From positions 32,001 to 96,000 of the IMG/VR virus record IMGVR_UViG_3300036780_000209: 64,000 bases of DNA; one strand, given 5' to 3'. This DNA comes from a virus. The position numbers and the translations under genes were made by a program. The notes under the pieces are model-generated. The model was given only the letters and a program-made list of their open reading frames with translations, was not told where the DNA came from and did not search any database. Of the stretch, positions 1,731 to 62,215 are shown piece by piece (position 1 is the first letter of the stretch; each line of letters begins with the position of its first letter).

Positions 1731-4090
1731 GGGTACAGCTCGCCGTCCATCTCGTCCCCCGAGACGCCCAGCCGGGAGCGCATCCCCACGTGGCGGGGGG
1801 TGCGGGCATACGCCGGGGCCGGCCCCGCGAGGAACGGCTCCGACCGCTCGGTCTCCCGGTGCGCCGTGAACTCGTGCAGGTCAGGGGCATCCTGTGCCCC
1901 CTGGTCCGAAGCTGTGATCACAGCTTCGCGCACCCTCGCGGTTCTCCTGAAAAGGGCCGCGTCGCTGATGACGCGGCGGAGAGCACGGGGGGCAACAGCA
2001 CCATCCTCCCTGTGCCCTCCCTGAGCCGCCCCGTCATCCTCCGTGCCATGCCGCAGGCCCTCAGCCTGCCCGTGTGCCCGTGTCCCGTCCCAGGTCCCGG
2101 TGCCATCGCTGCCGGTCACCCTGCGCATGGCGTGCACCTGGGTCTTCCCGCCTCCGGGGACGGGCATCCCGCCGCGCTCGTCACTGGACTCCCCGGGTAC
2201 CTGGGACTCCCCGTCATCCTGGTCAGGGGCGAACGGGTCCCCTCCCTCGCCGGGCGGGGGCTCCTCCTCGCCTTCCCCGCCGAGCATCATGTCCTCGGCG
2301 GTGGGTGCCAGGTCGGGCAGCTCCAGCGGGTCGGTGCCGAGCCTCGGTGCCATGATCATCTGCGCGGCCAGGGCCGGGGGGACCTCTTCGAGCTGGGCCA
2401 TCGGGGCGAAGTCGGCCATCAGGTCAGGGGGGACCGGGTACCCGCCGTCCCTCAGCGCGATGAACGTCTGCTTGCGGGTCTCCTGCTCGGCGACGGCGAG
2501 CTGCACCGCCTCGTCCTGGCTGCGCTGCACCTCCTCGTCCAGGTCGAAGTCCAGGTTCCTGGTGCGGGTCCTCATGGACACCGGGACCCCCGTCTCGCGC
2601 AGCGCCTCGGTGAACTGGCGGACCAGGTCCTCGTCCTTGAAGTTCAGGGTCTTGAACAGCAGGTCCGGGATGAGGAGCCTCGGCTGCTCGGTGATGCGCT
2701 TCCCGCCGGTCTCCTCGTCCTCTTCGAGCACTTCCTCCATGACCACGTAGCGCTTGCCGGCCCGCTCCTCGTAGTCATAGTGCTCCTGGGCCTCCGCCAC
2801 GATGAGGGCTCTCTTGCGGAAATGGCGCACCAGGTACTTCTGGTACCTCGTCATGAGCTGGGTGACCAGCTCCTTGTTCAGGGCGTCGGCGGCGTAGGTC
2901 TGGCCGCCCTGGGCTCCCATCAGGAAGGTGCGGCTCAATCCGAACACCTGCAGGACCCGGTCCTCGATCCGCTCGAAGTCAGGGGTCAGGTCCGGCATGT
3001 TCTCCTTGCCGAAGACCTGCTCGATCTCGATGGCGAAATTGTGGATCAGGGCGCGGAAGTCACCCGCCAGGGCCGCGTCTAGTGCCAGCTCGAAGGACTC
3101 CAGGTCGTCATCTGTGGGAATCCAAGGAACGCTCGTGCCCAGGTCTGTAGCCGAAGCTCCCAGCTTGCAGAGAATGAGGGGAGTGTAGAGGCGGTCTGCG
3201 ATCGAATCGAGGGCGGTGTTGAGCATCTCCTGCTGCAGCATGGGCCGCATGGCACGAGTGAGGAGCGGGACTCCACGGACATTGAACGTGTCCCCCTTGA
3301 AGCGGAGCTGCTGCATGAGCACCGAGCTGACCGGCATGAAGCTGTTCTCGCTGGTGTAGGCCACCAGCTCCGGGTACTCCTGAATCAATTTGTTATATTC
3401 CCAGGCCGGCTGCCTGGTCTGCAGGACCTGGCGGATCGTCCACGGCAGCCGGATGAAGTACCTCGGCTCCTTGAGGAACGGGGAGCGCTCCACCTTGACA
3501 TCATCGGGATTGAGCAGCTCCTCGTCATCCCAGATGCCCAGGTCCTCGTTGAAGGTGGCGAACGGCCACGCCTCCCCCACCGTCCAGTACTCGCGGCCGA
3601 TGTCCACCAGGAACTCCTCGTAGTCCAGGTGGTCCTCGTCGAAGAACTGCTCGGTGTAGAACTCGGTGAGCTTCTCGTCCTTGCAGCGCAGCTCGTGGCC
3701 CAGCACCGGGAACTTCGAGAAGATGTCCACGCAGGACCCGATGATCGGGTCCGTCTGGTACAGCAGCCTGCAGAAGGACCTGACCTTGGCCAGCTCCTCG
3801 TTCTCGGAGAAGTCATACGGGAGGTTGTTCTGCCGCCAGTAGAACAGCGGGTCCCGGGGCCGGCCGGTGGCGAACTGGATGTCGCCGAAGCCGCCTCCCG
3901 AGCCCGACGCCGCCGTGCGGCTCAGCTTGCCGTTGACGTGCCTGTTCTTCCTGGCCTCCTTGACCTCCGGGGTCATCTGGTCATCACGCAGGCCCCGCTG
4001 GCCGAACGCGAAGCCACGGCCGCCCATCAGGCGGATGACGCCCTGGTCGCTGTGCGAGCCGATCCGGGGATTGAACGGGACCCGGGTCAC
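1727..4090 (-). CDS. probable portal protein
   Basis: ~787 aa from GTG overlapping upstream stop; portal-like segments (CRLLYQTDPIIGSCVDIFSKFP, DTFNVRGVPLL, ERIEDRVLQVFGL); acidic Pro-rich C-terminus; lies among head genes. Confidence 0.65.
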   Translation of the reverse strand: MTRVPFNPRIGSHSDQGVIRLMGGRGFAFGQRGLRDDQMTPEVKEARKNRHVNGKLSRTAASGSGGGFGDIQFATGRPRDPLFYWRQNNLPYDFSENEELAKVRSFCRLLYQTDPIIGSCVDIFSKFPVLGHELRCKDEKLTEFYTEQFFDEDHLDYEEFLVDIGREYWTVGEAWPFATFNEDLGIWDDEELLNPDDVKVERSPFLKEPRYFIRLPWTIRQVLQTRQPAWEYNKLIQEYPELVAYTSENSFMPVSSVLMQQLRFKGDTFNVRGVPLLTRAMRPMLQQEMLNTALDSIADRLYTPLILCKLGASATDLGTSVPWIPTDDDLESFELALDAALAGDFRALIHNFAIEIEQVFGKENMPDLTPDFERIEDRVLQVFGLSRTFLMGAQGGQTYAADALNKELVTQLMTRYQKYLVRHFRKRALIVAEAQEHYDYEERAGKRYVVMEEVLEEDEETGGKRITEQPRLLIPDLLFKTLNFKDEDLVRQFTEALRETGVPVSMRTRTRNLDFDLDEEVQRSQDEAVQLAVAEQETRKQTFIALRDGGYPVPPDLMADFAPMAQLEEVPPALAAQMIMAPRLGTDPLELPDLAPTAEDMMLGGEGEEEPPPGEGGDPFAPDQDDGESQVPGESSDERGGMPVPGGGKTQVHAMRRVTGSDGTGTWDGTRAHGQAEGLRHGTEDDGAAQGGHREDGAVAPRALRRVISDAALFRRTARVREAVITASDQGAQDAPDLHEFTAHRETERSEPFLAGPAPAYARTPRHVGMRSRLGVSGDEMDGELYP

Positions 4091-8453: not shown

Positions 8454-8861
8454 ATGAGCCAAGCAAAGAGCACCAAGGTCAGCAAGCGGCAGGCGCAGGC
8501 AGTCCTGACGGCCGTCAAGAGCAAGTGGAAGGCCTACTGCCTCGACTTCCCGCAGGCGGACGGCAAGCCCGACTATGACGCGCCGATGAGCGCGATGGTC
8601 GCGGCGGACGCCAGCGAGCTGCCCCAGCTCATGATGACCTGGCAGGGCCGCGAGGACAGCGAGCCGTGCCCCGCCATCGTCTGGGAAAGCGGCCCGTTCG
8701 AGTGGGCCTACGGCGCGCTGGGCGAGTCCTGGGACTACGAGCTGGCCGCCGCCAGGGAGGAATTCCCCGGCCTGAACCCCGTGGTCAGGGGTGTCAGCGA
8801 GCCGAAGGGCGTGCACTGCGAGCCGTACTTCTCCTACGTTCTCTGCATCTACCCGGCCTGA
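8454..8861 (+). CDS. hypothetical protein
   Basis: ORF track; leaderless start. Confidence 0.75.
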   Translation: MSQAKSTKVSKRQAQAVLTAVKSKWKAYCLDFPQADGKPDYDAPMSAMVAADASELPQLMMTWQGREDSEPCPAIVWESGPFEWAYGALGESWDYELAAAREEFPGLNPVVRGVSEPKGVHCEPYFSYVLCIYPA

Positions 8862-8872
8862 AAGGAACTGAC

Positions 8873-9100
8873 GTGCAGCTCACCTGGCGCAGGGACCCGG
8901 AGGAAGAGGGCGGCTGGCAGAGCGCCCAGGAGGACGGGAACGGCCCGCTCTTCACCATCCGCAAGGGGCGCGCTCCCAGCGGCTACTACGACGCCTGGCG
9001 GCTGTACGGCCCGCAGCGCGGCAAGCCCGTCGCCCGGCCCGGCACGCTGACCGAGGCCAAGAAGATCGCCCAGGGCCACGTCCTGCAGGAAGGAAGCTGA
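8873..9100 (+). CDS. hypothetical protein
   Basis: GTG start after AAGGAA; ends TLTEAKKIAQ. Confidence 0.6.
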   Translation: MQLTWRRDPEEEGGWQSAQEDGNGPLFTIRKGRAPSGYYDAWRLYGPQRGKPVARPGTLTEAKKIAQGHVLQEGS

Positions 9101-27124: not shown

Positions 27125-29593
27125 TCAGTTCCTTCCGAGCGGAATGGACTCCCAGCGTCCGCCCCGACAGTACCAAATTTCCCCGACAGGCCACTTCATC
27201 TTCTTCACCTGCGGCAGGAAGCGCACGGGCTGCTTGCTGTAGGCGAGCGTGATGTGCGGGAGGAAGCCATGCTTGGCCGGGATGGCCGAGATGCCGTGCC
27301 CCTTCAGGAAATCCAGGAGACTGCCGTGGATCTCGTGGCCGCCGGGGATGTCCACCAGGGCGTGCAGGGCATGGTTGCCCTTGTTCGCGAAAGTGCCGGA
27401 CCCCTGGGTCGTGGCCTCGAACGGCCGCTGGGTCTTGGCCCACTGGCGCACCAGGTCCTCCAGCTTGCCGAGCTGCCTCTCAGGATGATCATCTTCCTCG
27501 CCCAGGTAGAGCAAGGTGATGTGCATCTTGGAGCGCGCCTCAGTCTCGTGCCGCAACGGCTTCATGATGTCCCGCAGGTGGTCGAGCACCTCAGCGGGAG
27601 GCACGATCGCCACCATCATCGACTTGCTGATGCCGTCGGCCCCGTCACGGGAGGGGACCGTGCGGACGGCCGCCGTGCTCGGCGCGAACGGCTGGGTGGT
27701 CTCGACATGCCTGATCACCGTCGCGCCCGGAGCCATGTACTGCCGCAGGCCGGCCGGGTGCGTCATGTTCCCGAGGTGCCCGTGGGGCTCGACCTCGTGG
27801 ATGTGGTGCCTGCCGATCGTCTCGGCCCACTCGCGTGCCGTGCCCAGGTCTCCCGACATGTAAATCCGGCCGCCAGGATGCGGCGCGGTCAGCTCCGTTC
27901 CCGGTTCCAGCATCTCCGCTGAGGCATGGAAGAGCCGCTCTGGCCGCTGAGCAGCCGCCTCCCTGGGGATCCCCAGGTGCTCGTAGTCGGCTGCGCCGCG
28001 CCCGCTGTGCCTGATGGTGATGGTGCGGTCCATCGGGTGCCACTCCCACCCGGGGTCCGGCTTGACCGCGCCGGGGGCCGACGGGTCGCGTTTCATGTCC
28101 TCGCGAGGGTAGCGGAGGTGACCGGGGGCCTCGGTGTCGTCGCCTCCGGGGTGGTGCCAGACGTAAGCACCGTGCAGCTTCACCTGCGCCCCGGGGCGGA
28201 ACCGCACCTCGGCCTCGCTGTCCAGGGACCTGTGCTGGCCGTACCAGATCGGGTGGTCACGGGGGAAGTGCTGGTCCGGGTGATCCACCTGGCCCTGCCA
28301 GAGCACGACCTTCTTTCCCGGCCAGGCATACCCCTTGATGGCCATGTCGGGGTCAGCCGTCCAGTGCATGCCGGTGGTAGCGTGCTCCAGGTCCTCTCCT
28401 GCAGGACGGTGCTCCCCCCGCCAGACGTGCGTGCCGGGCTCGGGGTTCTTCGCCACCTCCAGGAAATGGCGCCGGATTCCCCGCCACCCTTCGGGCTCGT
28501 CATACCGCTGGAAGACGGCCCTCTGGGCAGGCGGGAGGTCCTCGTCCCGGAAGGAGGCTGTCTTGCCCTTGGCGTACCACTCGTCGCAGGTGTAGTCGAA
28601 CATGATGCCGCCCTTGACCAGGGTGCAGCTTCCGGGCTCCGAATCACCCGGCGCGGGGCGGAACATGACGCAGCTCCCGCAGCGCTTCTCCCCCTCGGCC
28701 GGGCGGTAATTCACCTGGCCCTTGTTCTTCCTGCGAGCTGCCCATTTGCCCCTGAACGGATCATCATGCTCGCCCCGGCGCATATATGCCTTGTATTCCT
28801 CGGGGAATTGCTGCCTGCGCGTATTACGCCAGTGATCACTGTCCCTGAGATGGCTCTCGCTGTCCTCCGGCCAGTAGTCCCCGTGCTCTGGAGTGCGGAC
28901 GTAAGGGATGCCCTTCCCGAGCTTCCACGCAGAAACCAGGCGGTGATGACCCTGGCCGACTTCCCATTCGCCCTCTCCGTGGTGGGCAATCTCAACCGGG
29001 TGCGTCACTCCGTGCTGGCGGACATGATCAGTCAGCTCAGCCATGTACTTCGGTTCCCGGTGATGCAGTGCCTCGGAAACATAACTGATGTCCCGGCCCG
29101 GGTAATCACTGAAAGTGAGCTTGCCGAATTCATGAGGATGAAGAGTGCCGCTCTCGCCTTCGTCCTCGTCAGGATCCTGTATCGAGCCCGTGCTCGAAAA
29201 GAGCAGCGCACGCAGCTTGCCCAGCAGGTTATGGGGGTGCTGGTCGAGGTACTTCTCGATGACGTTGCCCGGGTCGGACCACCCTTCGCCTTCCCCGCTG
29301 AACGCCTCCGAGCGCATGTCGTGGATGTACTGCCACAGGGACCTGGCCTGGCGGGTGCGCTGGGGCTCGTCGAGCTTGAGGATCGCCCGGAGCTGGGCAG
29401 CGACGGCACGGGCCTCGGTGAGGAGCGCGGGGTGGAAGTCAGCCGCGCTGTGCTCGGGCAGATCAGGAGGTTCCACTGCCCAAGTGTTATTCGTCAGATC
29501 ATAAGCGGCATAGGGCTTGATCTGCCGGATATCATAGGCATCGTGGTTAACGTACCAGGTCATATCAAAAGAGTCACGCGCTCGCTGTGGCAT
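27125..29593 (-). CDS. polyvalent effector protein, part B (NTase C-terminal half, ParB-like, HiPIP-like, two ART-like domains, 2H phosphoesterase)
   Basis: Own RBS AAGGAG+ATG; TWYVN...IKPYAAYDL; GQGHHRL; CGSC...C...C; VWRG...HWT...EAEV; LFHAS...IYMS...HEVEP (Arr-like); two HITL motifs. Confidence 0.8.
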   Translation of the reverse strand: MPQRARDSFDMTWYVNHDAYDIRQIKPYAAYDLTNNTWAVEPPDLPEHSAADFHPALLTEARAVAAQLRAILKLDEPQRTRQARSLWQYIHDMRSEAFSGEGEGWSDPGNVIEKYLDQHPHNLLGKLRALLFSSTGSIQDPDEDEGESGTLHPHEFGKLTFSDYPGRDISYVSEALHHREPKYMAELTDHVRQHGVTHPVEIAHHGEGEWEVGQGHHRLVSAWKLGKGIPYVRTPEHGDYWPEDSESHLRDSDHWRNTRRQQFPEEYKAYMRRGEHDDPFRGKWAARRKNKGQVNYRPAEGEKRCGSCVMFRPAPGDSEPGSCTLVKGGIMFDYTCDEWYAKGKTASFRDEDLPPAQRAVFQRYDEPEGWRGIRRHFLEVAKNPEPGTHVWRGEHRPAGEDLEHATTGMHWTADPDMAIKGYAWPGKKVVLWQGQVDHPDQHFPRDHPIWYGQHRSLDSEAEVRFRPGAQVKLHGAYVWHHPGGDDTEAPGHLRYPREDMKRDPSAPGAVKPDPGWEWHPMDRTITIRHSGRGAADYEHLGIPREAAAQRPERLFHASAEMLEPGTELTAPHPGGRIYMSGDLGTAREWAETIGRHHIHEVEPHGHLGNMTHPAGLRQYMAPGATVIRHVETTQPFAPSTAAVRTVPSRDGADGISKSMMVAIVPPAEVLDHLRDIMKPLRHETEARSKMHITLLYLGEEDDHPERQLGKLEDLVRQWAKTQRPFEATTQGSGTFANKGNHALHALVDIPGGHEIHGSLLDFLKGHGISAIPAKHGFLPHITLAYSKQPVRFLPQVKKMKWPVGEIWYCRGGRWESIPLGRN

Positions 29594-30176
29594 CACGCTG
29601 CTCCTTCTGCTTGGCACGGATACGTCTCTTAGATTCCCGCTCTATATGACGCCTGTGCTCCGGATCCTGGGCTCTTTGCTTTGCATGATCAGCAAGAATA
29701 GCTTCCTTATTCCGATCATAAAACCCCGTCTTAGACTCCCTCGCGCATTTCCGGCAATTCCGTCTTCCATCCTTGAGGAAGAAGTACTCACAGCCATGCT
29801 TAGGGCATCTTTCCTTGCGCGAATTCCTATGCGTGCCATGCCTGACTGAATCCAGCATGTTCTCGCTCTTGGTGCCCCACTCAAGATTACTAGGAGAGTT
29901 ATCTTGATTTTCGCCATTAAGATGACGAGCTTCGAACTCGTCAGGGCACGGACCGTTAACTGCCTCGCAGACGAGTTGGTGGATATATCCACGGGTAATT
30001 TCGCCCTCACGTGACATAGCTATATAGAGGTAACCCTTCCTGTCAGCTTGCAGCTTCAAGAAGTTGCCGCCACGGAGCCCGCGCCGTGTCTGCCGGGGGA
30101 GGCTCCGAGCGCGCCCGCAGCTAGACACCTCGTACAGCTCCTCCCAGTCCCTGACCGGAAACCAGATCTCGGTCAT
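29574..30176 (-). mobile_element. NUMOD4-HNH homing endonuclease gene inserted in nucleotidyltransferase coding sequence
   Basis: EIWFPVRDWEELYEVSSCGRARS (NUMOD4), IHQLVCEA...ARHLNGENQDNSPSNLEWGT; AT-richer than flanks; flanking direct repeat. Confidence 0.9.
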
Positions 30177-33100
30177 CGCGCTCTCCTGGCAGATGATAAT
30201 CCGGGTCATTGAGTGCAGAACGCATCAGCTTGTTAAAGAAACCATCAATCTCAGACTCGGAGATAGAAGAGTATCCTGGATTATCCCGATAGAAGGTGGA
30301 ATAATTTATTCCTACCAAGATATCCAGGTCGTTATTACCTTCCAGTTCAGGTCCGGTCCAGCGGCTCGCCTCGCTGCCACTCAAATATACCTTGCTCCAA
30401 GCCTGCCAGTGGACAAAGCCCTGATCCCGGCAGAAGGCATCCCACTTCTCCATGACGGATTCACGAACTTCCGGCCGCAGCTCGCCGGCCTCGGTGAAGA
30501 GCCGGTGGTCCAGGCCATAAGTTGGGCCGAAGATGCCCCGGGCAGGCATCCAGCGAGTGCCCTGGGGCAGCGGAGCGGACAAGCGGCTGACCGGCCCGGC
30601 AGTCGCTGCCTCGTGCGAAATCCTGTCGTCGTTTCCCTCGTGAAGACGGGCCTCGATCTGGTGCGGGCGGAAGGCAATCGCCGAAGTATTAGCGGCAGCT
30701 CCACGGCTGGACTTCTCGAACTCATTGCCGTAGGTAATGCCGTCATGACCCTGATCTTCGAGGTGCTTCCTGAAGCGCTGGGCGATCTCGTATTTGTCTG
30801 GGTGCGCATTCAGCCACCCCATCGCGTAGGTGTGCTGAGCGGTGTGGTGATGGCCCGCGCGCATCGGGTCCGGCTCGCGTCGGTCCCGCATGCGGTCGCC
30901 ATGGTCAACGAAGTGATAGGCCGGGATCTCTTCTCTCAGTTCGTCGTGCCAGCCTTCCTTCTGCGCGTCCCGGTACGTCGCCATGTCGAGGTGCTTCTCC
31001 GGATGATTACCCGCCTTCCACTCGTGCTCGTAAACCTCCTGATCCATGTCGTGCTCGGAGTGGTAGTGCTTAGGGTTCCGAATGTTCAGGCGGGCATGCA
31101 CGATATGACCAGCCGGCTGATCGTCAGGGTCTTCCTGCTCGTAATCCGGGTTCCGGTGCTCGCCCTTACTGAATTCTCTGGCAACGTGATGATCAGCGGT
31201 GAAGTGCGATCCCATAAGGGTGTTCCAGTGCGAGGTATCGCTTTCATCGTGATCGAATTCAAGCGGACTGAAGTTATCGAACTTGGCGAAGCGATGCGGG
31301 CTCCCGTGAAACCACTCGCTGCCTTTGGTATGTGGGTTAGCCAGCGGGCGAGGCTGATGCGTCATATCGAAGAGCTTTAGCTGGCTATTCGGAAGCGCCA
31401 CGCCCACCTTGATGTTCCCCTGGTCGCCCTTGGTGATCTCTGGCGAAATTGATTCCACTCGATCCATAGGAATACGCTCACGGGTCCTGATGTAATCGTC
31501 AGCCGAGTGAGTAAACCACTTATCCGCCAGCTCATGGCGGATCTTGAGCACGTGCCCGGTGCCATTCCTGGGCAAGTAGGAGACGGCACTACGCGGATCG
31601 ACGGCCGCATTAGTACCCTCCCAGTCAGCAATCGTCCCGCGCCGGTCTGACTGGAGGTACCCGCGATCACGGGCCTGCGCCAGTTCATCGGCTGAAACGC
31701 CCCGGTAGACATGATGCACGGGCTCATCGCGGACCTTTTTCGGATATGCCAGGGCATTGGTGACCCCGGGGATGCCATGGTCCCAGACCTCGAAGTGAAC
31801 CGGTCCCTCCCCCCTACCCGCCGGGTGGTGAAGCCTGCGCGACTCGCCAGTCTCGACGCTGTATCCACTGCGCGGGTGGATAACCCGGTTAGCCTCTAGC
31901 CGCCTGGGATGGAACCAGTTCTCCAGGTGCTGGTCCAGCTCGTCATTGGTCATGGCCCCCTTGCGCAAACCAGGGAGCGAGACAGCCGCCGTGTGCTCCC
32001 CGGACCAGGAGTCAGTCTGGCCGGTGCGCTTGCGGTTGCCGTACCCGTACCAGGTGATGCCCTTGATCCTGACCGGAGCGTCCTCCCTGAGCGGGATCTC
32101 GCGCTCGCTGCCGCCCCAGCCGCCGTAGTTGGAGACACCTCCCTCTCCCAGGCGTCTCCGGTCGGTCTCTATGTGCCCGACATCGGGCAGCTTCGCATGC
32201 AGAATGACCTTGGTCGAGCCCGGCAGGTTGGTCCTGCGCTCGAAGTCGGCGAAGTGCCGGGACACCTGCTCCGTCGCGGACCAGTGCATGCCGAGGGGCT
32301 TGTCCCTCAGGTGGTCGGCAATCGCCTGGGCCTGCCTGTCCGGGTCCTGGAACTGATCGTGGACGAACCGGTGCACGTCCTCGGGCAGCTCGACCGCCAG
32401 CCCCCGGTGCATCAGCGGCTCGCTGCGCTTCCTGAACCGGAGCTTCCGGAGGTGCTCTCCCCACTGCTCCTCGGCCGACGGAGGCTCCCAGGCCGCCGCC
32501 CCGAGGGACCGCACCCATGCCTTCCCGTCGTCAGTCCGGTCGGTGGAGTGCTTCGCCCGGGGCGTCATCTCCTGGGACCAGTTCCACATGGCCGTGGCCA
32601 GGCCCTTGTGCCGATGCTGCGCGTGCACGTCGATGCTCTCGACCTGGTGCTTCGTGCCCATCCAGGAGAGCTTGCCGACTGCCTGCTCATGATCGGGGTG
32701 CCAGGCCTCGATGACGTGACGGGGCCTGCGCTCTCCCTCGTCCGACGTCCGGTAGCGCATCGTGTAGTCGCCGAACTGCCGCTCGTCACCCTCCTGCTGG
32801 CGGACGGCCACGTGCCGATCCGGGCCGCCTATCCGCTGCCAGGAGTGAGGTTCATGCTCCCATGCTTCAAGACCGTGCTCCTCCCACCGGGATTCATCCA
32901 GGTGCTCAGGCCAGTCCGGGCGATCGGGGAGGGATGCCTCCATGTGGTGAATGCGAACCGGAGCGCCGGACTTGACAAGCGTCTCCTGCTCGTCCTTGTG
33001 GGTAAGTCCTTGCCAGCCGTGCCCTTCTACCATGGCCGAGCGCAGCTCATCGGGATCGCTGACGTGGTGAGACTTCGCGATGCTTCCGTGCATCACGACG

Positions 33101-34125
33101 GGAACGTGCATGTAGAACGGGCTCGGAACTGTTGTCCGCGCCTCGTGAGTCAGCGGATGCGCGAACCTGCGGGCAATGTCCTCCCGCGCCGACCAGTGCT
33201 CTCCCAGGTGCTCACCGACATGCTGGCGGATAAGGTCATGCACCGCCGGATGACCACCTGAACGGTAGGCCCCGGTGATGTCATCCGGGGCCATCTCGAT
33301 GCTGATTCCACGATGCAGTACCTGCCGGGCCGCAGCATTCCGCTCACGCCAGTTGTCCCACTGCTCCTGCTGGGCATCGTCGTCATACAGGGAGCGGAAA
33401 TGCTCGGGCTTTATGCTGGCAGCGGGAATGGAATAGTGCTTTTCCCCGGACGGGAACTCATCCTCCAGGCGGGCCATTTGCTCGGGGACGTGAAGGTGCA
33501 CCGCGTCATTCCCGTAGCCCTTCGCCTGGGCAAAAGGCGCGTTGCTGAAAAACACCACCGGGCGGCCGTGCTCGTCGTTCTCCTCCGGCTTGAACGCCAT
33601 GTCCTTCCAGATGCGGCGGGCACCTGACGGGGAAGTGTGATGCCAGAGATGGATCATCCGGGCGGCAGTCTTCTCCCCGGCCCAGCGGCCCGATCGCTCC
33701 AGGTTGAAGGCGGCGTCGAATTCCTCCGGGGTGGAAGGACGGTGCTCCGTCATCACGGGCGGCTTGCCCGGCTGGTGACGCACCACGACCGGAACGTCAT
33801 GAACTCCGGCCCGCTGCGCGGCATCCAGGCGGTGCATGCCGTTGAAGGTGGTAGGGCCTCCGTGAGCCGGGAAGTCCTCGATCGCCAGGGGGTGCTGCAC
33901 CCCGTTGCGCCGGACATCAGCGGTCAGCTCCCGCCAGTGGCGGCGGCGGGGCGGGTGGTCGTCGCAGTACCCCTGTGGCTCGGACGCGGCCAGGGTGCCG
34001 CTGGCGTCGCAGGGATAGCACTCGTGACCGTCGCGGTGCTCTCCCGAGCCCTGGCAGCACGCGCAGGACTTCCGGCCGCGACCCGGGCGGGCAGCCCCGA
34101 AGTGAGCGAGCAGGTCGGCAGTCAT
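30121..34125 (-). CDS. polyvalent effector protein, part A (Zn finger, ParB-like, five ART-like domains, GNAT, NTase N-terminal half)
   Basis: FNGMHRL; LWHHTS..VFFS; LHRG..HWS..EQE; HRHKGLATAMW (GNAT); MHRG..HWS..EREI; VYRG; WFHGS..GSHFT..GHDGITY; YLSGSEAS..NDLDILV (Pol-beta NTase). Confidence 0.8.
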   Translation of the reverse strand: MTADLLAHFGAARPGRGRKSCACCQGSGEHRDGHECYPCDASGTLAASEPQGYCDDHPPRRRHWRELTADVRRNGVQHPLAIEDFPAHGGPTTFNGMHRLDAAQRAGVHDVPVVVRHQPGKPPVMTEHRPSTPEEFDAAFNLERSGRWAGEKTAARMIHLWHHTSPSGARRIWKDMAFKPEENDEHGRPVVFFSNAPFAQAKGYGNDAVHLHVPEQMARLEDEFPSGEKHYSIPAASIKPEHFRSLYDDDAQQEQWDNWRERNAAARQVLHRGISIEMAPDDITGAYRSGGHPAVHDLIRQHVGEHLGEHWSAREDIARRFAHPLTHEARTTVPSPFYMHVPVVMHGSIAKSHHVSDPDELRSAMVEGHGWQGLTHKDEQETLVKSGAPVRIHHMEASLPDRPDWPEHLDESRWEEHGLEAWEHEPHSWQRIGGPDRHVAVRQQEGDERQFGDYTMRYRTSDEGERRPRHVIEAWHPDHEQAVGKLSWMGTKHQVESIDVHAQHRHKGLATAMWNWSQEMTPRAKHSTDRTDDGKAWVRSLGAAAWEPPSAEEQWGEHLRKLRFRKRSEPLMHRGLAVELPEDVHRFVHDQFQDPDRQAQAIADHLRDKPLGMHWSATEQVSRHFADFERRTNLPGSTKVILHAKLPDVGHIETDRRRLGEGGVSNYGGWGGSEREIPLREDAPVRIKGITWYGYGNRKRTGQTDSWSGEHTAAVSLPGLRKGAMTNDELDQHLENWFHPRRLEANRVIHPRSGYSVETGESRRLHHPAGRGEGPVHFEVWDHGIPGVTNALAYPKKVRDEPVHHVYRGVSADELAQARDRGYLQSDRRGTIADWEGTNAAVDPRSAVSYLPRNGTGHVLKIRHELADKWFTHSADDYIRTRERIPMDRVESISPEITKGDQGNIKVGVALPNSQLKLFDMTHQPRPLANPHTKGSEWFHGSPHRFAKFDNFSPLEFDHDESDTSHWNTLMGSHFTADHHVAREFSKGEHRNPDYEQEDPDDQPAGHIVHARLNIRNPKHYHSEHDMDQEVYEHEWKAGNHPEKHLDMATYRDAQKEGWHDELREEIPAYHFVDHGDRMRDRREPDPMRAGHHHTAQHTYAMGWLNAHPDKYEIAQRFRKHLEDQGHDGITYGNEFEKSSRGAAANTSAIAFRPHQIEARLHEGNDDRISHEAATAGPVSRLSAPLPQGTRWMPARGIFGPTYGLDHRLFTEAGELRPEVRESVMEKWDAFCRDQGFVHWQAWSKVYLSGSEASRWTGPELEGNNDLDILVGINYSTFYRDNPGYSSISESEIDGFFNKLMRSALNDPDYHLPGERDDRDLVSGQGLGGAVRGV

Positions 34126-34374: not shown

Positions 34375-36477
34375 TCAAGATCGCGACATCCGGCGCGGCG
34401 AGGTGCCCCTGCCCCCGTAGCCTGCCCCGGGACGGCCCGTGCGCCCCATGCCGGAGTGCAGGCCCCGGTGCATCCCCGACTGGCCGAGCGCCAGGCCGAA
34501 CGGGTTGGAGAACTGGCCCGGGTCGAACCGCTTGTACGGGTCGTCGCCGCCGGGGAGACTCAGGCCGGGCCGCTGGCGGGCCAGGTCGCGGCCGAGGAAG
34601 GTGCCCATCTGCTCGCCGAGCAGGGCGGCCGTGACGATCGCGACGCAGTCGGCGATGTCCTTGGTCTGGACCGGGCCCGAGGTAGGGCAGATGACCTTGG
34701 ACTGGCCCTCGGGCTTCTGGAGGAACTTCAGCTCCTGGGCCGCCTCCATGTGCACCGGGGCATGCACCAGCCCCATGTTCAGGCATGCCTTGAAGGTCTC
34801 GTAGGTACTCCAGTTCAGGGCGGCCGTGGCATCGCGGACATAGACCTGGACGTTCTTCTGCAGGTGCCCGGCCCGGACGCGCTTCTGCAGCGCCTGGACC
34901 GTGGCCGGGGCATTGAACTGGTCGAACGTCAGCTCGTCCGGCTGGAACCTGGTGACCACGTTGGAGTAGATCCACTCGATGATCTCGTCGTAGTCCACGA
35001 AGTGATCGTCGTAATCCGCCGGATCCCAGAAGTGGATGAGGTCGAACACCGCGTGATTCAGGCCGTCGGGGCCGGGCTCCTCGTGGGCCAGGGCAAAGCC
35101 GAACCGGCAGTTGACGTTCGAGGGGTCACCGTGCGCCCGGTAGCTGACCAGGAGGGGTCCCCGGACCTGGTTCTCCAGGTGCGGCGGTCCCCAGTCAGGG
35201 TGGCGCTCGCCCCAGTCGGCGAACATGCCGTCCACCCGGGCGGCAGCCAGGTAGGCGTCCATCGCGGTAGCCCAGTTGGACAGGCGCTCCACCCGGAAGG
35301 CGTCCGGATTGGCGCGCTCCTCCTTGCGCATGTTGTCGTCGTAGGCCTGGATCGCCCCGCGCAGCTTTCGGAAGCGGGGAACTTCGGCGTGCTCCTGCAG
35401 GTCCCCCGTGAAGCCAGGCGGGAAGATCTCCAGCTCGTGCGCCCGCTCCCAGTCCTTGTACGGCCCCCAGGAGGGGAGCTGCAGCATGAGCTTGTTCTGG
35501 TAGACCGCCATGAGCTGGTCGTCGTGCAGCTCGCGCTGCAGGGACAGCTCCCACAGCTCGTAGAAGCGCCCTGTCATCTCCCAGGTGGAGCTGGGCAGGA
35601 TGATGAAGGCGTCGGTGCCGAACTGGTCCAGGGACGGGGTGGCGGCATTGTAGACGGCACCGAACTCGCGGGTGATCCCCGCGTTCTTGACGTGGGCGGC
35701 CTCGTCGAACCCGACCAGGAAGCCGGCCTGGCCACGGGGAGCCACCAGGGTGGACTCCCGGGGGACGATCGAGAAGCTCGCCATGTCCCGGGTCGTCCGG
35801 ATGCCCCGGGCTGCCATCTTCCGCATCCGGACGAAATCATAGGGAGCGTAAACCGTCAGCGATTCCGCCAGGGGGGCGGAAATGTATTCCGTGAAGCACG
35901 GGGCCGTCGTGATGACGTTGTAAAGGTCCCCCCAGAGGTTTTCCTTGGCCTGCTCCCTCTTGCTCGCGAAGATCATTGCCGAGAGCTGCTTGTTCGGGTC
36001 AATGCCGTAGTATTCCTGGGGGTTTCCCTTGGCCAGGTAATTCCAGAGCACGTAGGCCATGGCCAGGGAAGAGACATAGCCTTTAGCGCCACGGCGGCCG
36101 ATTGCCAGGATAACCTCGCGGAACCACCGGTAATTGTGTGCTTTCAGCCACGCGATCCGCTCGTAGACATCAGGCTGGATCCCGTTGGTGCGGGCCGTGA
36201 ACTTATTCTCGACTCCGGCGTCAGGGTTGGTCTCGTTGAAGTCGTTGATCCACTCTGCGATGACCTGGTGGTCGTAATCGGTGAACAGGTCGTCGCGGAG
36301 GAAGATGATCTTGAGCAGGGTTGCCTGGCGGGGGTAGAGATTGGGCTTGTCCAGCCAGTGCTCGCTGAGGACGAAGGTGATCGGGTCCGGGACCGGGAGG
36401 TTGTCGTACCACCCGAGCACCTCCAGGGGGTTCATCCCTCCGGTGTCGGGAGCCTCCCAGAAGCCGGGCCTCGGCAT
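34375..36477 (-). CDS. terL: terminase large subunit
   Basis: Walker A IGRRGAKG, Walker B LVGFDEAAH, LPSS motif III, RNaseH-like acidic residues HGDPS / TFDQFN / KDIADC; start 36477 or 36435. Confidence 0.85.
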   Translation of the reverse strand: MPRPGFWEAPDTGGMNPLEVLGWYDNLPVPDPITFVLSEHWLDKPNLYPRQATLLKIIFLRDDLFTDYDHQVIAEWINDFNETNPDAGVENKFTARTNGIQPDVYERIAWLKAHNYRWFREVILAIGRRGAKGYVSSLAMAYVLWNYLAKGNPQEYYGIDPNKQLSAMIFASKREQAKENLWGDLYNVITTAPCFTEYISAPLAESLTVYAPYDFVRMRKMAARGIRTTRDMASFSIVPRESTLVAPRGQAGFLVGFDEAAHVKNAGITREFGAVYNAATPSLDQFGTDAFIILPSSTWEMTGRFYELWELSLQRELHDDQLMAVYQNKLMLQLPSWGPYKDWERAHELEIFPPGFTGDLQEHAEVPRFRKLRGAIQAYDDNMRKEERANPDAFRVERLSNWATAMDAYLAAARVDGMFADWGERHPDWGPPHLENQVRGPLLVSYRAHGDPSNVNCRFGFALAHEEPGPDGLNHAVFDLIHFWDPADYDDHFVDYDEIIEWIYSNVVTRFQPDELTFDQFNAPATVQALQKRVRAGHLQKNVQVYVRDATAALNWSTYETFKACLNMGLVHAPVHMEAAQELKFLQKPEGQSKVICPTSGPVQTKDIADCVAIVTAALLGEQMGTFLGRDLARQRPGLSLPGGDDPYKRFDPGQFSNPFGLALGQSGMHRGLHSGMGRTGRPGAGYGGRGTSPRRMSRS

Positions 36478-36478
36478 C

Positions 36479-36910
36479 TCAGTGAGAGTGCCCGTGCGAG
36501 TGCGGGTGACCATGTCCGTGAGAACGGCCGTGATCCATGCCGCCGCCGGCCCTGAACTTCTTGAAGGCATCCCCCTGGTCGGTCCTGATGACCTCGCCCT
36601 TGTCCTGGCCCGGCAGCTCCAGGATGTTCTGGGTGACCTCCCAGACCTGGCGGTCCGGGTCGAAGGAGCTGAGGCGGCCGGTCACGGTGACCTCGGGCAT
36701 CGCCGATCCGGCCTGAACGACGCCCCCGACGGCGTAGCTATGCCAGTTCACGTCCACCGCGAAGCCGATGTCCTCGAAGCGGCTCCGGATCTCGCGCTCG
36801 AAGGCCTCGTAGTTGTGCGCCTTCAGGCGAGCCCGGTCCTGCAGGACGGAGAGGATCTTCGTGATCTCATCGACCTCGGAGTCAAGTACTTCTAGTACGC
36901 TGTTACCCAT
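36479..36910 (-). CDS. hypothetical protein upstream of TerL, His-rich tail
   Basis: MGNSVLEVLDSE...HGHGHPHSHGHSH; native RBS displaced by HNH insertion. Confidence 0.7.
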   Translation of the reverse strand: MGNSVLEVLDSEVDEITKILSVLQDRARLKAHNYEAFEREIRSRFEDIGFAVDVNWHSYAVGGVVQAGSAMPEVTVTGRLSSFDPDRQVWEVTQNILELPGQDKGEVIRTDQGDAFKKFRAGGGMDHGRSHGHGHPHSHGHSH

Positions 36911-37442
36911 GAGCGATAGCACCTGCCTGGTTCCTGGTTGCCTGAGGCCAATAAAGACGTACGGCATGTGCAATGGGCATCATCAGCGATGGTGGCGCTG
37001 CGGAGGAAGACTTCCCGAAAAGCCCCAGACTAATGAGACATGGCTCACTATCCCCGGATACGAAGGATGTTATGAAGTCTCTGACTGGGGACGAATCTGG
37101 AGCATCCGACATTTGCGCATGCTTATCCAGACGGAGACCTCTGGCGGTTACCTTCAGGTGACCTTGTGCAGGAACAAGACTCGGCAACAGACAGCGGTTC
37201 ACCAACTTGTAGCGCTCACGTTCATCGGGCCAGTCCCGGCGGGGGAAGAAGTTTGCCACAGAGATGACATCCAGATTCACAACATCCCCAGCAACCTGGA
37301 GTATGGAACCCGGGCTTATAACGCCCAGCAATCGGCAGAGCGCAGAAGGCACAGAAACAGCCGAAAGGAAAAATGCCCAGCATGCGGCCGGGACTACAAG
37401 TCTGAGGGCAAGGACAAGCGGCGTTGCCGACATCATGACTGA
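36909..37442 (+). mobile_element. NUMOD4-HNH homing endonuclease gene, inverted relative to operon
   Basis: ETWLTIPGYEGCYEVSDWGRIWS, VHQLVALTFIG...VCHRDD...NIPSNLEYGT; flanked by CATGA repeats (36908-36912, 37434-37438). Confidence 0.9.
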
Positions 37443-37446
37443 CTCC

Positions 37447-38079
37447 TCACCCCTCACTCTCCTTCCCGGCCAGGACAGGCTGCTGGCCGGTGATGATCGT
37501 CCGCATCCTCGGCGAGGCATAGGCGTCCTCGACGAAACTGCGCCACTGGGGCGGGCTCAGGTAGCCCTGGACCAGCTCGACCAGTTCCATCAGGGCGGCC
37601 TGCCACACGGAGGCGTCGATGCTGTTCTGCTGGGCGGCCTTGTCGATCTGGAGCTGCAGGCTCATCGCCTTGAGCAGGTCCTTGGCAGTGACCTCGATCT
37701 CGCCGCTGGCCAGGCGGGCGTACCCGGCCTGGATCATCGCCTGGGCAGCGTCCGGGACCTTGACCAGGGACAGGTCCTCAGTCCCGTTCTTCCGGCTTTC
37801 GAGCTGCATCCGCATCTGGAGGTGCGGGGCGGCCAGGTGCTCGGTGTGGTCCCTGATGATCTCCGGGTGCGGGCAGGCCGGCCTGCGCCCCTTGAGGAGC
37901 TGGCGGATCGCGGCCGTCGAGTAGCCCTGGGAGAGCATGTCGTCGATCTGGATCAGCCACGGCGACCGGCAGCAGGCGCAGCCGGGGTCAAACGGCTTGT
38001 CGTATTCCCTGCCCCCGATGGAAACCGTCCGGACCTCGATGTCATTCATCGCCGTCGGCGTGATCCCCGTCCCCGACAT
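37447..38079 (-). CDS. Zn/HTH protein, candidate terminase small subunit
   Basis: CACCRSP...IDDMLSQGYSTAAI...HTEHL; position upstream of TerL. Confidence 0.45.
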   Translation of the reverse strand: MSGTGITPTAMNDIEVRTVSIGGREYDKPFDPGCACCRSPWLIQIDDMLSQGYSTAAIRQLLKGRRPACPHPEIIRDHTEHLAAPHLQMRMQLESRKNGTEDLSLVKVPDAAQAMIQAGYARLASGEIEVTAKDLLKAMSLQLQIDKAAQQNSIDASVWQAALMELVELVQGYLSPPQWRSFVEDAYASPRMRTIITGQQPVLAGKESEG

Positions 38080-38377
38080 AACTATCCAGGCCGTTCTGCA
38101 CCCGCTTAGACGGATAGAATCCGTCCCGGCTGTTCAGGTGCGGGTAGCGCCGGTTCCAGGAGCGCCGGTACATTCCCTTGCGCACCGCCGGGTCGGCGAA
38201 TCCGGTGGAGGTGTACACCTCCTTGGAAATCCGGTCCTCGTATTTCCACTCCGTCAGGATGTCGGACTTGGCACTGCGGCTCGTGACCCCTGCCAGGGAT
38301 TCCCTCAGCAGGCGGTCAGCCTCATCCTCCAGCGCCCTGCTGACTCCGTTCCGGAGCCTCATCTGCGTCATTCTCAT
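38042..38377 (-). CDS. hypothetical protein
   Basis: ORF track, internal ATG. Confidence 0.55.
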   Translation of the reverse strand: MRMTQMRLRNGVSRALEDEADRLLRESLAGVTSRSAKSDILTEWKYEDRISKEVYTSTGFADPAVRKGMYRRSWNRRYPHLNSRDGFYPSKRVQNGLDSYVGDGDHADGDE

Positions 38378-38699
38378 CAGCTCCAGCACGATTGATCTCG
38401 TCATACAAGAGGCAGAGCCTCTTGAGCCCCTGAGTGGCGTAGATGGCCACCGGGTTGACCGGGGAGACGCCCATGAGCCGGGCGACATCCCTTTCCCGCA
38501 TGTCGTCGTAGAGGAACATCTCGATAGCCTCGGCCTGCCGGGCCGAAAGCTCAGTGCGGCGGTGGTAAAGGGCCTGGATGTCCCACAGGCAGTATTCCTC
38601 GCCGTCTGGCCCCGGGAGGGTATCGACGCCCTCGGTCTCGAACAGCGCCTCGAAAAGCTGCAGGTACCGGAAAAGCTCTCTCAGGGTCCGGTGGTCCAA
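38322..38699 (-). CDS. sigma70 region-4-like HTH protein
   Basis: LSARQAEAIEMFLYDDMRERDVARLMGVS...YATQGLKRL. Confidence 0.7.
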   Translation of the reverse strand: MDHRTLRELFRYLQLFEALFETEGVDTLPGPDGEEYCLWDIQALYHRRTELSARQAEAIEMFLYDDMRERDVARLMGVSPVNPVAIYATQGLKRLCLLYDEINRAGADENDADEAPERSQQGAGG

Positions 38700-38873
38700 C
38701 GTCCTTGATGCTCCCTAAGCCCAGAAGTTAAGAACTGCCCTATCTGAGCCAGATGTTAACCGATGAAAAGGCCACGTGTCATCACCGGCTAAAGAAGCAG
38801 CGTTTTTCCTGCAAGGAGAATTGATAAAGCCCGGCCGCTGATTAGCAACCGGGCTTGTATCTTTACGAGAAAA

Positions 38874-39578
38874 TCAGGTCTTGGTGACCTGCATCAGGAT
38901 CTGTTCCAGGCGCGTCATGGCGCGGACCAGGGCATCTGCACGCCGCGAGAGAATCGACTTGAATACGCCGAAATATCTCTCATCGAGAGAATGAGTCACG
39001 CCGGCCTGGGCCTTGTCGTCCACCGTGGACTTGCCCGGGACGTTCTGGAAGCCGTCGGCGAAGCGCTCCTCCCAGGCCACTTTCGCGAGCATCGCCTCGC
39101 CCCACAGCCCGGCTGCCACCTGCTCCCACTCGAACAGGCGGCCCGTGATCTCCTGGAGGTACTGCAGCCGCTCCCGGTCCGAGATCCTCAGCCAGTTCTC
39201 CACCGGGCTCCCGTTATCGTGCACCTTCCAGGTGGGGCGGCCGTCGGGACCGGTCTTCATCGTCCCGTCCGGGCTGATCTCCGGCTCGCGCACCAGGAGG
39301 TACAGCCGGTCCATGAGCGCGAACGCGCCCCCGAACTGGGACCTCATCACCTTCTCGGCCTGGACCTTGATCTCCTCGATCACGATCCGGTCCTCGCCGC
39401 GCCAGGAAGTGCGCATACGGGAGAAGTTCGGGGTGCGGAAGTTGCGCCTGCGGTCATCCGGCAGGTCAGGCTCCACGGGCTCGCTGCCCCCCGGACTCAG
39501 CGGCCTCTCGCTGTCAGCGAGCACCCGGTTGATCTGCTGCCTGCTCTTCTCGTCCATCCTGGCTCCTCTTGAGGTCAT
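38874..39578 (-). CDS. hypothetical protein
   Basis: ORF track; helical. Confidence 0.7.
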   Translation of the reverse strand: MTSRGARMDEKSRQQINRVLADSERPLSPGGSEPVEPDLPDDRRRNFRTPNFSRMRTSWRGEDRIVIEEIKVQAEKVMRSQFGGAFALMDRLYLLVREPEISPDGTMKTGPDGRPTWKVHDNGSPVENWLRISDRERLQYLQEITGRLFEWEQVAAGLWGEAMLAKVAWEERFADGFQNVPGKSTVDDKAQAGVTHSLDERYFGVFKSILSRRADALVRAMTRLEQILMQVTKT

Positions 39579-60363: not shown

Positions 60364-61895
60364 CAGTTCCCCATTTTCCTGTTCTTCGCCATCGCGAACA
60401 TCACCCTGCGGTCCTGCCCGGTGACGAATCCGTCGGCGTCCACGTCGCCCAGCATATTATCCTGCTGGTCATTCCTCTCAAGCAGCTTGGGAATCGTCCT
60501 GGTCTGCTCGATGGTCTTATCCGTGACAAATGTCATGAACGTCAGCGGATTACCCTGGAGAATGCGATGGCCGCGCCCGGCCCTCTGCGTCCTGGTGGCA
60601 TTAGTGAAGGCGGCCTCGTACTCGATGATGTAATCCGCCTCGGGCACGTTGATGCCCCGGGCGGCGGTGTCCGAGGCGAGCAGCACGGCCGGTCCCGGGT
60701 ACTCGCGGAATGCCTTCACCGCCCGGTCCTGCTGGAGCCTGGTTAGCTGGCCATGGCAAGTAAAGACCTTCTGGGTGAGCCTGCGGGCCAGTACGGGCAG
60801 GACGGTCTGGCCGTAGAAGGTGAAGACGAGAGCCTTGTGCCCCTGCTGCTCGATCATGCCCAGGTGGTAGGCGAGCATCTCGGCCTTGGCGCTGGAGCAT
60901 GCTCGCAACTCGTCCTCCAGCTCCTGCGCCACCATGACTGCCAGTCCCGATCCGCCGCGCCTGCCTGCCTCGATGACGGCAAGAGGGTCACCCGCGAGCT
61001 GGCGGAGCAGCACGGCGAGGCCGGGCACGTTCACGTAGCCGTCCTCGTCCCAGGCCAGGTCCTCCAGCTTCCTGTAGATCGCGTACTGGTCGGCATGCAT
61101 CTGGCACCGGATGAACTTCTCCGCGAACGGCGGGAACTGGTCCCGTACGTCCGGGTCAGTCTTGCGCTTGCGCAGGGTCAGCGGATCGCATGCCTGCCGG
61201 AGCCACTCGATCCCCTCGGGATTGTAGACCGGATTATGATAGGCATTACGGTACAGGACGCAGTTCTTGTTGAACTCGTCAACGGAGGGCATTCTGTGCG
61301 GAGCAAGCACCCGCATTTCATTGAAAAATCCCTCGTAGGAGTTAGAGCCCACCGGAGTGGCCGTGAGCCCCAGGGTCCGGACGCCGGTGCCGCTGGCCTT
61401 GGCAATCTCCACGACAAACCGGCGATGGGCCTTGTAGTTCCTGGAGGACCGGTTAGACAGCTTGCTGATCTCGTCGTAGATGACCAGGAGCCGCTTTCCT
61501 GAGTAGGCCTGCAGGAAGGGTCCGGGCCGGAGTTTCAGGCTCGTCTCGAAGACGATGGCATCCGACTTCATCGTCTCGTACGTGGTGATGAGGACGAGCG
61601 GAATTCTTTCCAGGTGCTTTTTCCGGCTGGCCCCATGGTAGATGACCACGTCCTCAAAGCGCGTGAAGGAAGCGAAATCATCTTTCCATTCCGTGAGCTT
61701 ATTGGGCTCGCAGACGATGATGACGTAATCAGCTTCCCCGTCCTCGACCGCCAGGCTGGAGACGCCCAGGGCGGCCATGCTCTTCCCGACGCCGGTATCC
61801 CAGACGAGCATGGCCTGCTCCATCAGGTGAGCACGGGCAATGTGGTCGATCTGGAACGGGATCGCCTTCGGGGGGCAGAAGAGCGAGGCCGTCAC
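60363..61895 (-). CDS. SNF2-family helicase
   Basis: WDTGVGKS, ITTYE, IYDEIS, LTATP, ARGINV, QRAGRGHRI. Confidence 0.9.
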   Translation of the reverse strand: MTASLFCPPKAIPFQIDHIARAHLMEQAMLVWDTGVGKSMAALGVSSLAVEDGEADYVIIVCEPNKLTEWKDDFASFTRFEDVVIYHGASRKKHLERIPLVLITTYETMKSDAIVFETSLKLRPGPFLQAYSGKRLLVIYDEISKLSNRSSRNYKAHRRFVVEIAKASGTGVRTLGLTATPVGSNSYEGFFNEMRVLAPHRMPSVDEFNKNCVLYRNAYHNPVYNPEGIEWLRQACDPLTLRKRKTDPDVRDQFPPFAEKFIRCQMHADQYAIYRKLEDLAWDEDGYVNVPGLAVLLRQLAGDPLAVIEAGRRGGSGLAVMVAQELEDELRACSSAKAEMLAYHLGMIEQQGHKALVFTFYGQTVLPVLARRLTQKVFTCHGQLTRLQQDRAVKAFREYPGPAVLLASDTAARGINVPEADYIIEYEAAFTNATRTQRAGRGHRILQGNPLTFMTFVTDKTIEQTRTIPKLLERNDQQDNMLGDVDADGFVTGQDRRVMFAMAKNRKMGN

Positions 61896-62215
61896 GCGGC
61901 TATCTCCGTGTCCTCGACCCCGACCATGAGCGTCATCCGGAACGGGGCCGGGCTGAGCGGGATGTCCCGGCTCGTCACCAGGTCCTCCCGGCAGAAGATG
62001 TCCGCAGAGGCCGCTGAGCGGCACGGTTCCCGGAGGTAGCCGCTGAGCATGATGCGCCCGTCGTCGGCCAGCACCTGCCGGGTGAGGGAGATAAGGTGCC
62101 TCCTGCAGCCATGGATGACGGCATACCACGGGCCGTCATCGTGAAGCAGGCGCTCCAGGAGGCGGGCTCGCGCCACGAGCTGAGAGATCCTCAGCTCCAG
62201 CTCCGCAGCGGACAT
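61892..62215 (-). CDS. hypothetical protein
   Basis: RBS AAGGAGG. Confidence 0.6.
   Translation of the reverse strand: MSAAELELRISQLVARARLLERLLHDDGPWYAVIHGCRRHLISLTRQVLADDGRIMLSGYLREPCRSAASADIFCREDLVTSRDIPLSPAPFRMTLMVGVEDTEIAA

Follow-up and report, generated by a model that had tools for sequence, protein, structure and literature searches.

We found that a predicted homing-endonuclease gene in a 166-kb soil phage is inserted backwards at the start of a gene in the packaging operon, and that the strand opposite this gene is one continuous reading frame that ends on the start codon of the host gene. The inserted gene, HNH gene D, is in the window, the whole 64,000-nucleotide (nt) stretch of DNA that was analysed (bases 32001-96000 of the 166,498-bp IMG/VR virus record IMGVR_UViG_3300036780_000209; 67% GC). 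All native genes around the insert are on the minus strand, in the order P0004, P0003 and then P0005, which encodes the large terminase, TerL. HNH D lies between P0004 and P0003, on the plus strand. The Shine-Dalgarno sequence (SD) and ATG that preceded P0003 are orphaned at the far end of the insert, both ends of the open frame have the coupling geometry native to this junction, and HNH D is depleted of codons that would be stops on the other strand. We think that the open antisense frame lets ribosomes cross the insert, keeping the packaging operon expressed; judging from our comparisons, the probability of this is about 60%. Translational coupling through an antisense open reading frame (ORF) had been suggested from the letters of the window alone (the sequence-only reading). 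It gained support from comparison, in which three other backward paralogs were also open.

Coordinates of D and of P0003-P0005 are in window numbering. Those of four other HNH genes of the same phage (A, B, C and E, below) are in whole-record numbering unless marked as window. The features at site D are:

36909..37442, plus strand: HNH gene D (P0001), a predicted free-standing NUMOD4/HNH_3 homing-endonuclease gene of 177 amino acids (aa), backwards relative to the operon
36903..37436, minus strand: the mirror-frame ORF, or candidate relay ORF (P0002), 177 codons followed by TAA, and exactly in codon register with HNH D
37448..37443, minus strand: GAGGAG, an SD 6 nt before the orphaned ATG (37436..37434); duplex with the anti-SD, -12.4 kcal/mol
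36903..36910, minus strand: ATGGGTAA, the P0003 start overlapped by the relay stop (TAA, 36905..36903; ATG of P0003, 36910..36908)
36908..36912: left copy of CATGA, containing the host ATG (minus) and the HNH D ATG (plus)
37434..37438: right copy of CATGA, containing the orphaned ATG
38079..37447, minus strand: P0004, the upstream host gene, 210 aa; stop TGA at 37449..37447
36910..36479, minus strand: P0003, host gene, 143 aa, phrog_2779, function unknown, with a His-rich tail
36477..34375, minus strand: P0005, TerL, 700 aa, with weak similarity to phrog_9

The sequence-only reading had described HNH D, the CATGA copies and their spacing, the 177-codon antisense frame, its TAA and the overlap of two start codons in CATG, and all of these coordinates were correct on re-reading and translation. 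HNH D starts with ATG at 36909 and ends with TGA at 37440-37442. The CATGA copies are 526 nt apart, and the palindrome CATG is common to the ATG of HNH D and that of P0003. The GAGGAG-tcagtc-ATG proposed to be orphaned at the far end was found at 37448..37434 (minus strand). Its GAGGAG overlaps the TGA of P0004, and tcagtc is the spacer to the orphaned ATG; that is, the P0004 stop is followed, after 10 nt, by the relay ATG. At the other end, the relay TAA overlaps the P0003 ATG. Thus, the geometry at the site is that of coupling, with a stop at or within a few nucleotides of each start. The antisense frame had been offered with the caveat that it is in codon register with HNH D, and the register is indeed exact.

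The CATGA repeats are present where they had been placed, but they do not fix the boundaries of the insertion. A 5-bp repeat is weak evidence because both ends contain start codons and small offsets are allowed. In addition, codons 2-10 of P0003 (GGT AAC AGC GTA CTA GAA GTA CTT GAC) are AT-rich: G+C at third codon positions (GC3) is 3/9, compared to 0.86 for the whole gene. We therefore rejected the repeat as proof of exact boundaries. The left boundary is less certain; DNA beyond 36908 on that side was probably imported or co-converted as well.

We compared this junction to the same junction in relatives. A search based on TerL gave 35 related loci, of which the eight closest are L004, L006-L010, L025 and L034; TerL is 64-67% identical in these eight, as it is in relatives with ~160-kb genomes. 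In all eight, the homologs of P0004 and P0003 abut or overlap, with no HNH gene between them. Because the flanking genes adjoin without an insert in these eight relatives, HNH D is an insertion, and the claim that it was inserted at the start of P0003 held up. In 7 of the 8, the P0004 homolog ends in Gly-Gly, usually preceded by Pro, and these codons read GGAGG or a near variant, which is the SD for the P0003 homolog; L004 has an equivalent GGGGAGG further downstream. The start of the P0003 homolog overlaps the upstream stop, as GTGA or, in L007, L008 and L009, as ATGNNTGA or GTGNNTGA. In these last three, the stop sits exactly at the position of the TAA in the window. Deletion of the 526 nt returns this TAA to the frame of P0004, and the junction of the empty-site allele would read GAGGAGTCAGTC-ATGGGTAAC. 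An SD in the last upstream codons and a start that overlaps the stop are what one sees in the relatives, in agreement with the suggestion that the orphaned SD and ATG are the ancestral start of P0003. Judging from these overlaps, translational coupling is the predicted native mode of the P0004/P0003 junction.

A similar arrangement is found at the next junction. TerL lacks an SD (-2.5 kcal/mol with the anti-SD), and a single nt separates its ATG from the P0003 stop (TGAgATG). Based on these two properties, translation of TerL probably depends on ribosomes coming from P0003, and with this geometry the whole stretch appears to be built for ribosome hand-over.

We propose the following sequence of events. 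A compact element, the HNH ORF alone, would have entered a packaging operon whose genes are coupled in translation. It would have landed backwards, precisely after the ATG of P0003 and before codon 2. The SD and start codon of the ancestral gene would have been stranded at the far end and would now start translation of the strand opposite HNH D. Ribosomes from P0004, or ribosomes newly bound at GAGGAG, would read a 177-codon junk frame across the 0.53-kb insert, terminate at the TAA in ATGGGTAA and restart 5 nt back at the ATG of P0003 (termination-reinitiation). TerL would then be reached by the TGAgATG hand-over. In addition, translation of the insert RNA would shield it from Rho-type polarity and decay. 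We infer that the frame is translated, that selection holds it open, and that the benefit is reinitiation or protection from polarity. Since P0003 has a candidate SD of its own (AGGTG, below), reinitiation at D may matter less than keeping 0.53 kb translated.

Several other features of the RNA were analysed. RNA folding near the starts of P0003 and of the relay showed no excess of stability over shuffled sequences (z = -0.05 and -1.6), and a scan of the locus for sigma-70 promoters found none. Among sequencing runs, this DNA is listed for just one, the soil metagenome that is its probable source, and for no RNA run. A weak terminator-like hairpin (window 37392..37376, minus strand), with CATTTTTCCT after it, is found in the relay ORF, 45 nt from its start; the count of such hairpins equals the chance expectation. 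Translation of the relay ORF would mask this hairpin.

The open frame can be described by the codons of the HNH gene. Mirror stops are the TTA, CTA and TCA codons of an HNH gene, which are read as stops on the opposite strand. HNH D has 11 Leu codons (9 CTN and 2 TTR) and 9 Ser codons (4 TCN), and none of these is TTA, CTA or TCA; therefore the mirror frame is open for 177 codons. Of the four-fold codons of HNH D, 30% end in A, and with the third-position usage of this gene a complete absence of mirror stops is unusual (P = 0.0035). The outside homologs to which we compared this were 119 HNH_3 loci of IMG/VR, which include 70 non-redundant ones. Those with a GC3 of 0.5-0.65 had 1.7 mirror stops per 100 codons, and none of 15 was open. 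At that rate, the probability of an open frame by chance (P0) is ~0.05 for a gene of 177 codons. The sequence-only reading had reasoned that HNH genes in other contexts should not be equally open in antisense, and this is what we found, both in these 15 homologs and in the forward-oriented paralog in the same genome, which is closed.

There are five HNH_3 genes in the record. Four are on the plus strand, backwards relative to their neighbours (A, B, D and E), and one is co-oriented (C):

2692..3225, plus strand: HNH-HTH gene A, in the junction after a 1766-aa gene (region G000:C1:2680-3231; L043)
8510..9004, plus strand: HNH gene B, in the 5' end of the 1766-aa gene (region G000:C1:8420-9097; L002:1462-2139; L043)
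163474..163983, plus strand: HNH-HTH gene E, backwards and in frame within a 1465-aa minus-strand ORF
61574..62209, minus strand (window 29574-30209): HNH gene C, a co-oriented NUMOD4/HNH_3 gene whose ATG has no SD; two TCA codons close the mirror frame

The mirror frame was fully open in all four backward genes and closed in the only forward one. At A, B and D, the start and stop of the relay are placed on the flanking genes; at E, the HNH gene is embedded in frame in a gene for a protease polyprotein. The joint probability that A, B and D are all open was 1.5e-4 with the pooled outside rate and 3e-3 with the rate for co-oriented genes only. Comparison of these 3 of 3 with 4 of 35 gave P = 0.004 (Fisher).

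The junctions at these sites resemble that at D. At site A, the relay ATG (3231) has an SD, GGAGGA (-12.9), and overlaps the TAA of the 1766-aa gene (ATGGGCCTAA). The 83-aa gene downstream has no SD (-3.7), and its ATG overlaps the relay TGA in the sequence ATGA. In G003, which is uninserted at site A, the same downstream gene follows the stop of the giant gene, with AGGAGG and an ATG of its own; the 83-aa gene downstream of HNH A has lost this AGGAGG. At site B, the ancestral GGGAGG and GTG of the giant gene begin the relay, which takes in 31 ancestral codons and then the whole antisense strand of the HNH gene. The relay ends at a TAA; 2 nt further on is the ATG of another copy of the N-terminus of the giant gene, recoded and AT-richer.

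At site E, the host ORF (G000:C1:160354-164748; L044:1855-6249) has an N-terminal head-maturation protease (phrog_2774, phrog_18299). It is continuous without the insert in G002 and G004, and continuous with an HNH gene, 49-60% identical, at the same place in G001, G003, L164 and L167. Between relatives the HNH protein is ~60% identical and the mirror product only 43%, indicating that the constraint is on the HNH frame. Translation of the antisense strand would add ~170 residues of filler to the host protein, right after the protease domain.

HNH C overlaps the end of a 1334-aa ORF (window 30121..34125) and the start of the ORF at window 27125..29641, and from this arrangement it apparently splits one giant gene in two.

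We also found open backward HNH genes in a lineage unrelated to this phage. Two 50% identical backward NUMOD4/HNH_3 alleles (L112/L113 and L152/L154, IMG/VR contigs with a GC of 0.51) sit between a tail gene and an 87-aa gene (in L113, region 2881-3537). At a GC3 of 0.40-0.43 these alleles have no mirror stop in 190 codons (P0 ~6e-4 and 3e-3). The three codons are common in the host genes: CTA or TTA accounts for 21 of 90 Leu codons, and TCA for 11 of 83 Ser codons. The relay of L113 starts with an ATG 2 nt past the upstream TAA and ends with a TAA 3 nt before the downstream ATG. In L152, the relay ATG is ~22 nt before the stop of the upstream gene, which it overlaps, and the relay TAA is 2 nt before the downstream ATG. 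Two further backward and open genes (L187 and L193) had ambiguous junctions and were left out of this count of replicates. It seems to us an even bet that backward elements consisting of an HNH ORF alone are a recurrent class in translated junctions and coding sequences of phage late operons, surviving because selection removes all of their TTA, CTA and TCA codons. Host ribosomes would cross such elements by a separate relay ORF (A, B, D, L113 and L152) or as in-frame filler (E).

The strongest alternative is chance. That is, a backward insertion would have an open antisense strand through the codon bias of a high-GC actinophage, P0003 would initiate in the ordinary way, and the mirror ORF would have no role. 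Several results weigh against a relay, and a number of them are what chance would give. Openness alone is weak evidence because this is a 67% GC genome and the antisense strand of TerL is open too, for 699 codons; native genes in general are routinely open in antisense. TTA and CTA are missing from all five HNH genes of the genome, including the forward one, so D needs only to avoid TCA among 4 TCN codons, and the contrast with the forward paralog rests on two TCA codons only (0 of 47 Ser codons in backward genes vs 2 of 13 in the forward gene; Fisher P = 0.044). By itself, a relay stop close to the host start is no rarity; the other shifted frame meets a TAG 16 nt in. P0003 has a candidate SD of its own, AGGTG, 9 nt upstream and long-spaced (-11.6 kcal/mol, duplexfold), and given this sequence coupling may be needless at site D.

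In addition, nine other groups of backward HNH genes (L084, L094, L098, L110, L159, L161, L163, L174 and L188) carry 1-14 mirror stops, and most are tightly sandwiched between host genes, where they are presumably tolerated. In five of the nine the downstream gene has a clear SD, with an ambiguous choice of start codon. Thus, a bridge is an option for backward HNH genes and not a general requirement. Finally, a search of 5.8 billion proteins found no homolog of HNH D with >43% identity.

Chance fits less well with the frequency of open genes (4 of 4 backward HNH genes here vs 0 of 15 outside homologs at the same GC3), with site A, where the gene that overlaps the relay stop has no SD at all, and with two diverged alleles that are fully open at a GC3 of 0.40-0.43 in genomes whose genes use the three codons freely. 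Weighing both sides, we consider chance unlikely, and we favour a relay at site D.

The properties of HNH D bear on two other alternatives. It matches NUMOD4 (2e-10, 41.2 bits; Pfam cut-off 23.4) and HNH_3 (6.8e-9, 35.7 bits; Pfam cut-off 24.8), and also phrog_1492 (3e-38) and phrog_59 (5e-34), both HNH endonuclease families. In an alignment with three paralogs, H117, N129, N138 and H148 were invariant; a Tyr replaces the conserved Glu adjoining N138. Based on its domains, its catalytic residues and its presence or absence at the site, HNH D belongs to the free-standing NUMOD4/HNH_3 homing-endonuclease type, with cleavage and homing as predicted activities. Its composition is foreign (GC3 of 0.62 vs 0.86-0.93 in neighbouring genes). 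It has no SD (+0.2), and a TACGCT hexamer is 7 nt upstream of its ATG. Leaderless expression is typical of actinobacteria, and it is possible, as a speculation, that HNH D is expressed in this way. The C-terminus of HNH D is shorter than that of its paralogs (ending in ...RRCRHHD, compared to ...RRCRxCRR...). Its last codons are CAT GAC TGA, and the early end fits with these being read-through of the host spacer. Single-protein searches of IMG/VR with P0003 and with HNH D found no relatives.

HNH proteins work with terminase in some cos phages, and HNH D, ~0.4 kb upstream of TerL, could be a domesticated packaging helper of that kind, with an incidental antisense ORF. A distant relative (L022) has a forward HNH_3 gene between the P0003 homolog and TerL, which is in keeping with such a role. 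On the other side, HNH D is missing from all eight close relatives, it is backwards, without an SD and of foreign composition, and it is of the homing type; its four paralogs are scattered over other junctions in the genome. We regard a packaging role as very improbable.

Least probable of all, and hardly credible, is that the mirror ORF encodes a functional protein as one of an antisense overlapping pair: it has a strong SD, an ATG and 177 codons, but its product matches no Pfam or PHROG family, the relays of the four sites (A, B, D and E) show no relation to one another, and at site E the mirror product is less conserved than the HNH protein. We also rejected an intein, as the mirror product has no Pfam match and the insert is outside coding sequence, and a group I intron, as there was no Rfam intron match in 36000-38300 at E <= 1.

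Parts of this arrangement are found in known systems. The free-standing seg and mob genes of phage T4 are, like HNH D, endonuclease genes without introns or inteins between conserved, co-transcribed phage genes; they are present or absent among relatives, have little or no initiation region of their own and overlap their neighbours (PMC2988022). Among T4 endonuclease genes only segD points the opposite way to the genes beside it (23 and 24), and the review describes no frame on its opposite strand, nor a role for one (PMC2988022). In contrast, HNH D fills its junction exactly, with an opposite-strand ORF from the upstream stop to the downstream start.

The ShiLan domain is a hidden, out-of-frame HNH endonuclease inside DNA methylase genes of actinophages (Arsenault, Gosselin and Gogarten 2025, PMC11855218). 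Like HNH D, it is an HNH gene without intron or intein features in translated actinophage sequence that the host frame crosses without a stop (PMC11855218). It is on the same strand in another frame and inside a gene, whereas HNH D is on the opposite strand in codon register and between two genes. The open frame of HNH D is a separate bridging ORF, and that of ShiLan is a loop in the host protein. Site E is an in-gene, antisense counterpart of ShiLan. Thus, ShiLan is the closest published case, and HNH D appears to work like a ShiLan-type hidden insertion without being a member, as it is neither on the same strand nor in a gene. We searched the literature for HNH insertions of an antisense or relay kind and found none.

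Bonocora et al. are said to have described, in 2011, the ribosomal bypass of T4 gene 60 together with the mobA endonuclease cassette. As in the proposed relay, a translational device tied to a homing-endonuclease insertion gets ribosomes past inserted DNA. The ribosomes hop over 50 untranslated nt in gene 60, whereas those at site D would translate a junk frame of ~530 nt, terminate and restart. Termination-reinitiation at overlapping stops and starts (ATGA, TAATG) is the classical form of coupling in phage and bacterial operons. The ends of the relay, TGA-10 nt-ATG and ATGGGTAA, match this geometry as it is found in the uninserted host genes of the relatives. The difference is in the partner, which here is the antisense strand of a selfish gene and not a gene with a product. 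These comparisons support the view that D is a variant combining a free-standing homing endonuclease, coupling and ShiLan-type transparency.

The usual view is that homing endonuclease genes survive either in intergenic DNA, where they do no harm, or within introns and inteins that splice themselves out. If our reading is correct, there would be a third route, besides introns and inteins, by which an endonuclease gene can be harmless inside essential genes. The element would be transparent to translation from the other side, and the packaging operon, including terminase, would stay expressed. The choice of synonymous codons in the HNH gene would be dictated by the need to be translatable backwards, and a single change that is synonymous in HNH D and creates a mirror stop should silence the downstream genes. 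Such a relay would also explain the odd, long "hypothetical" ORFs called opposite endonuclease genes. Annotators should also be aware that a selfish gene can lie backwards within a giant ORF, as in the 1465-aa protease polyprotein.

Other observations concern the host genes near the insert. Homologs of P0003 are upstream of TerL in 22 related loci. In close relatives there is a gap of 0.6-1.4 kb between P0003 and TerL; the two genes touch in this genome. The C-terminus of P0003 (window 36479-36520, minus strand) is a His/Gly-rich tail, ...GRSHGHGHPHSHGHSH. TerL resembles the terminase of Mycobacterium phage Tonenili, and a search of GenBank phage DNA matched 90 nt of the terminase only. Upstream, window 38133-38874, between two native genes, is a stretch of lower GC. 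It contains a 148-aa minus-strand ORF (phrog_2849) and, overlapping it, a 125-aa ORF with a weak sigma-factor-like match (phrog_3512, 3.5e-4).

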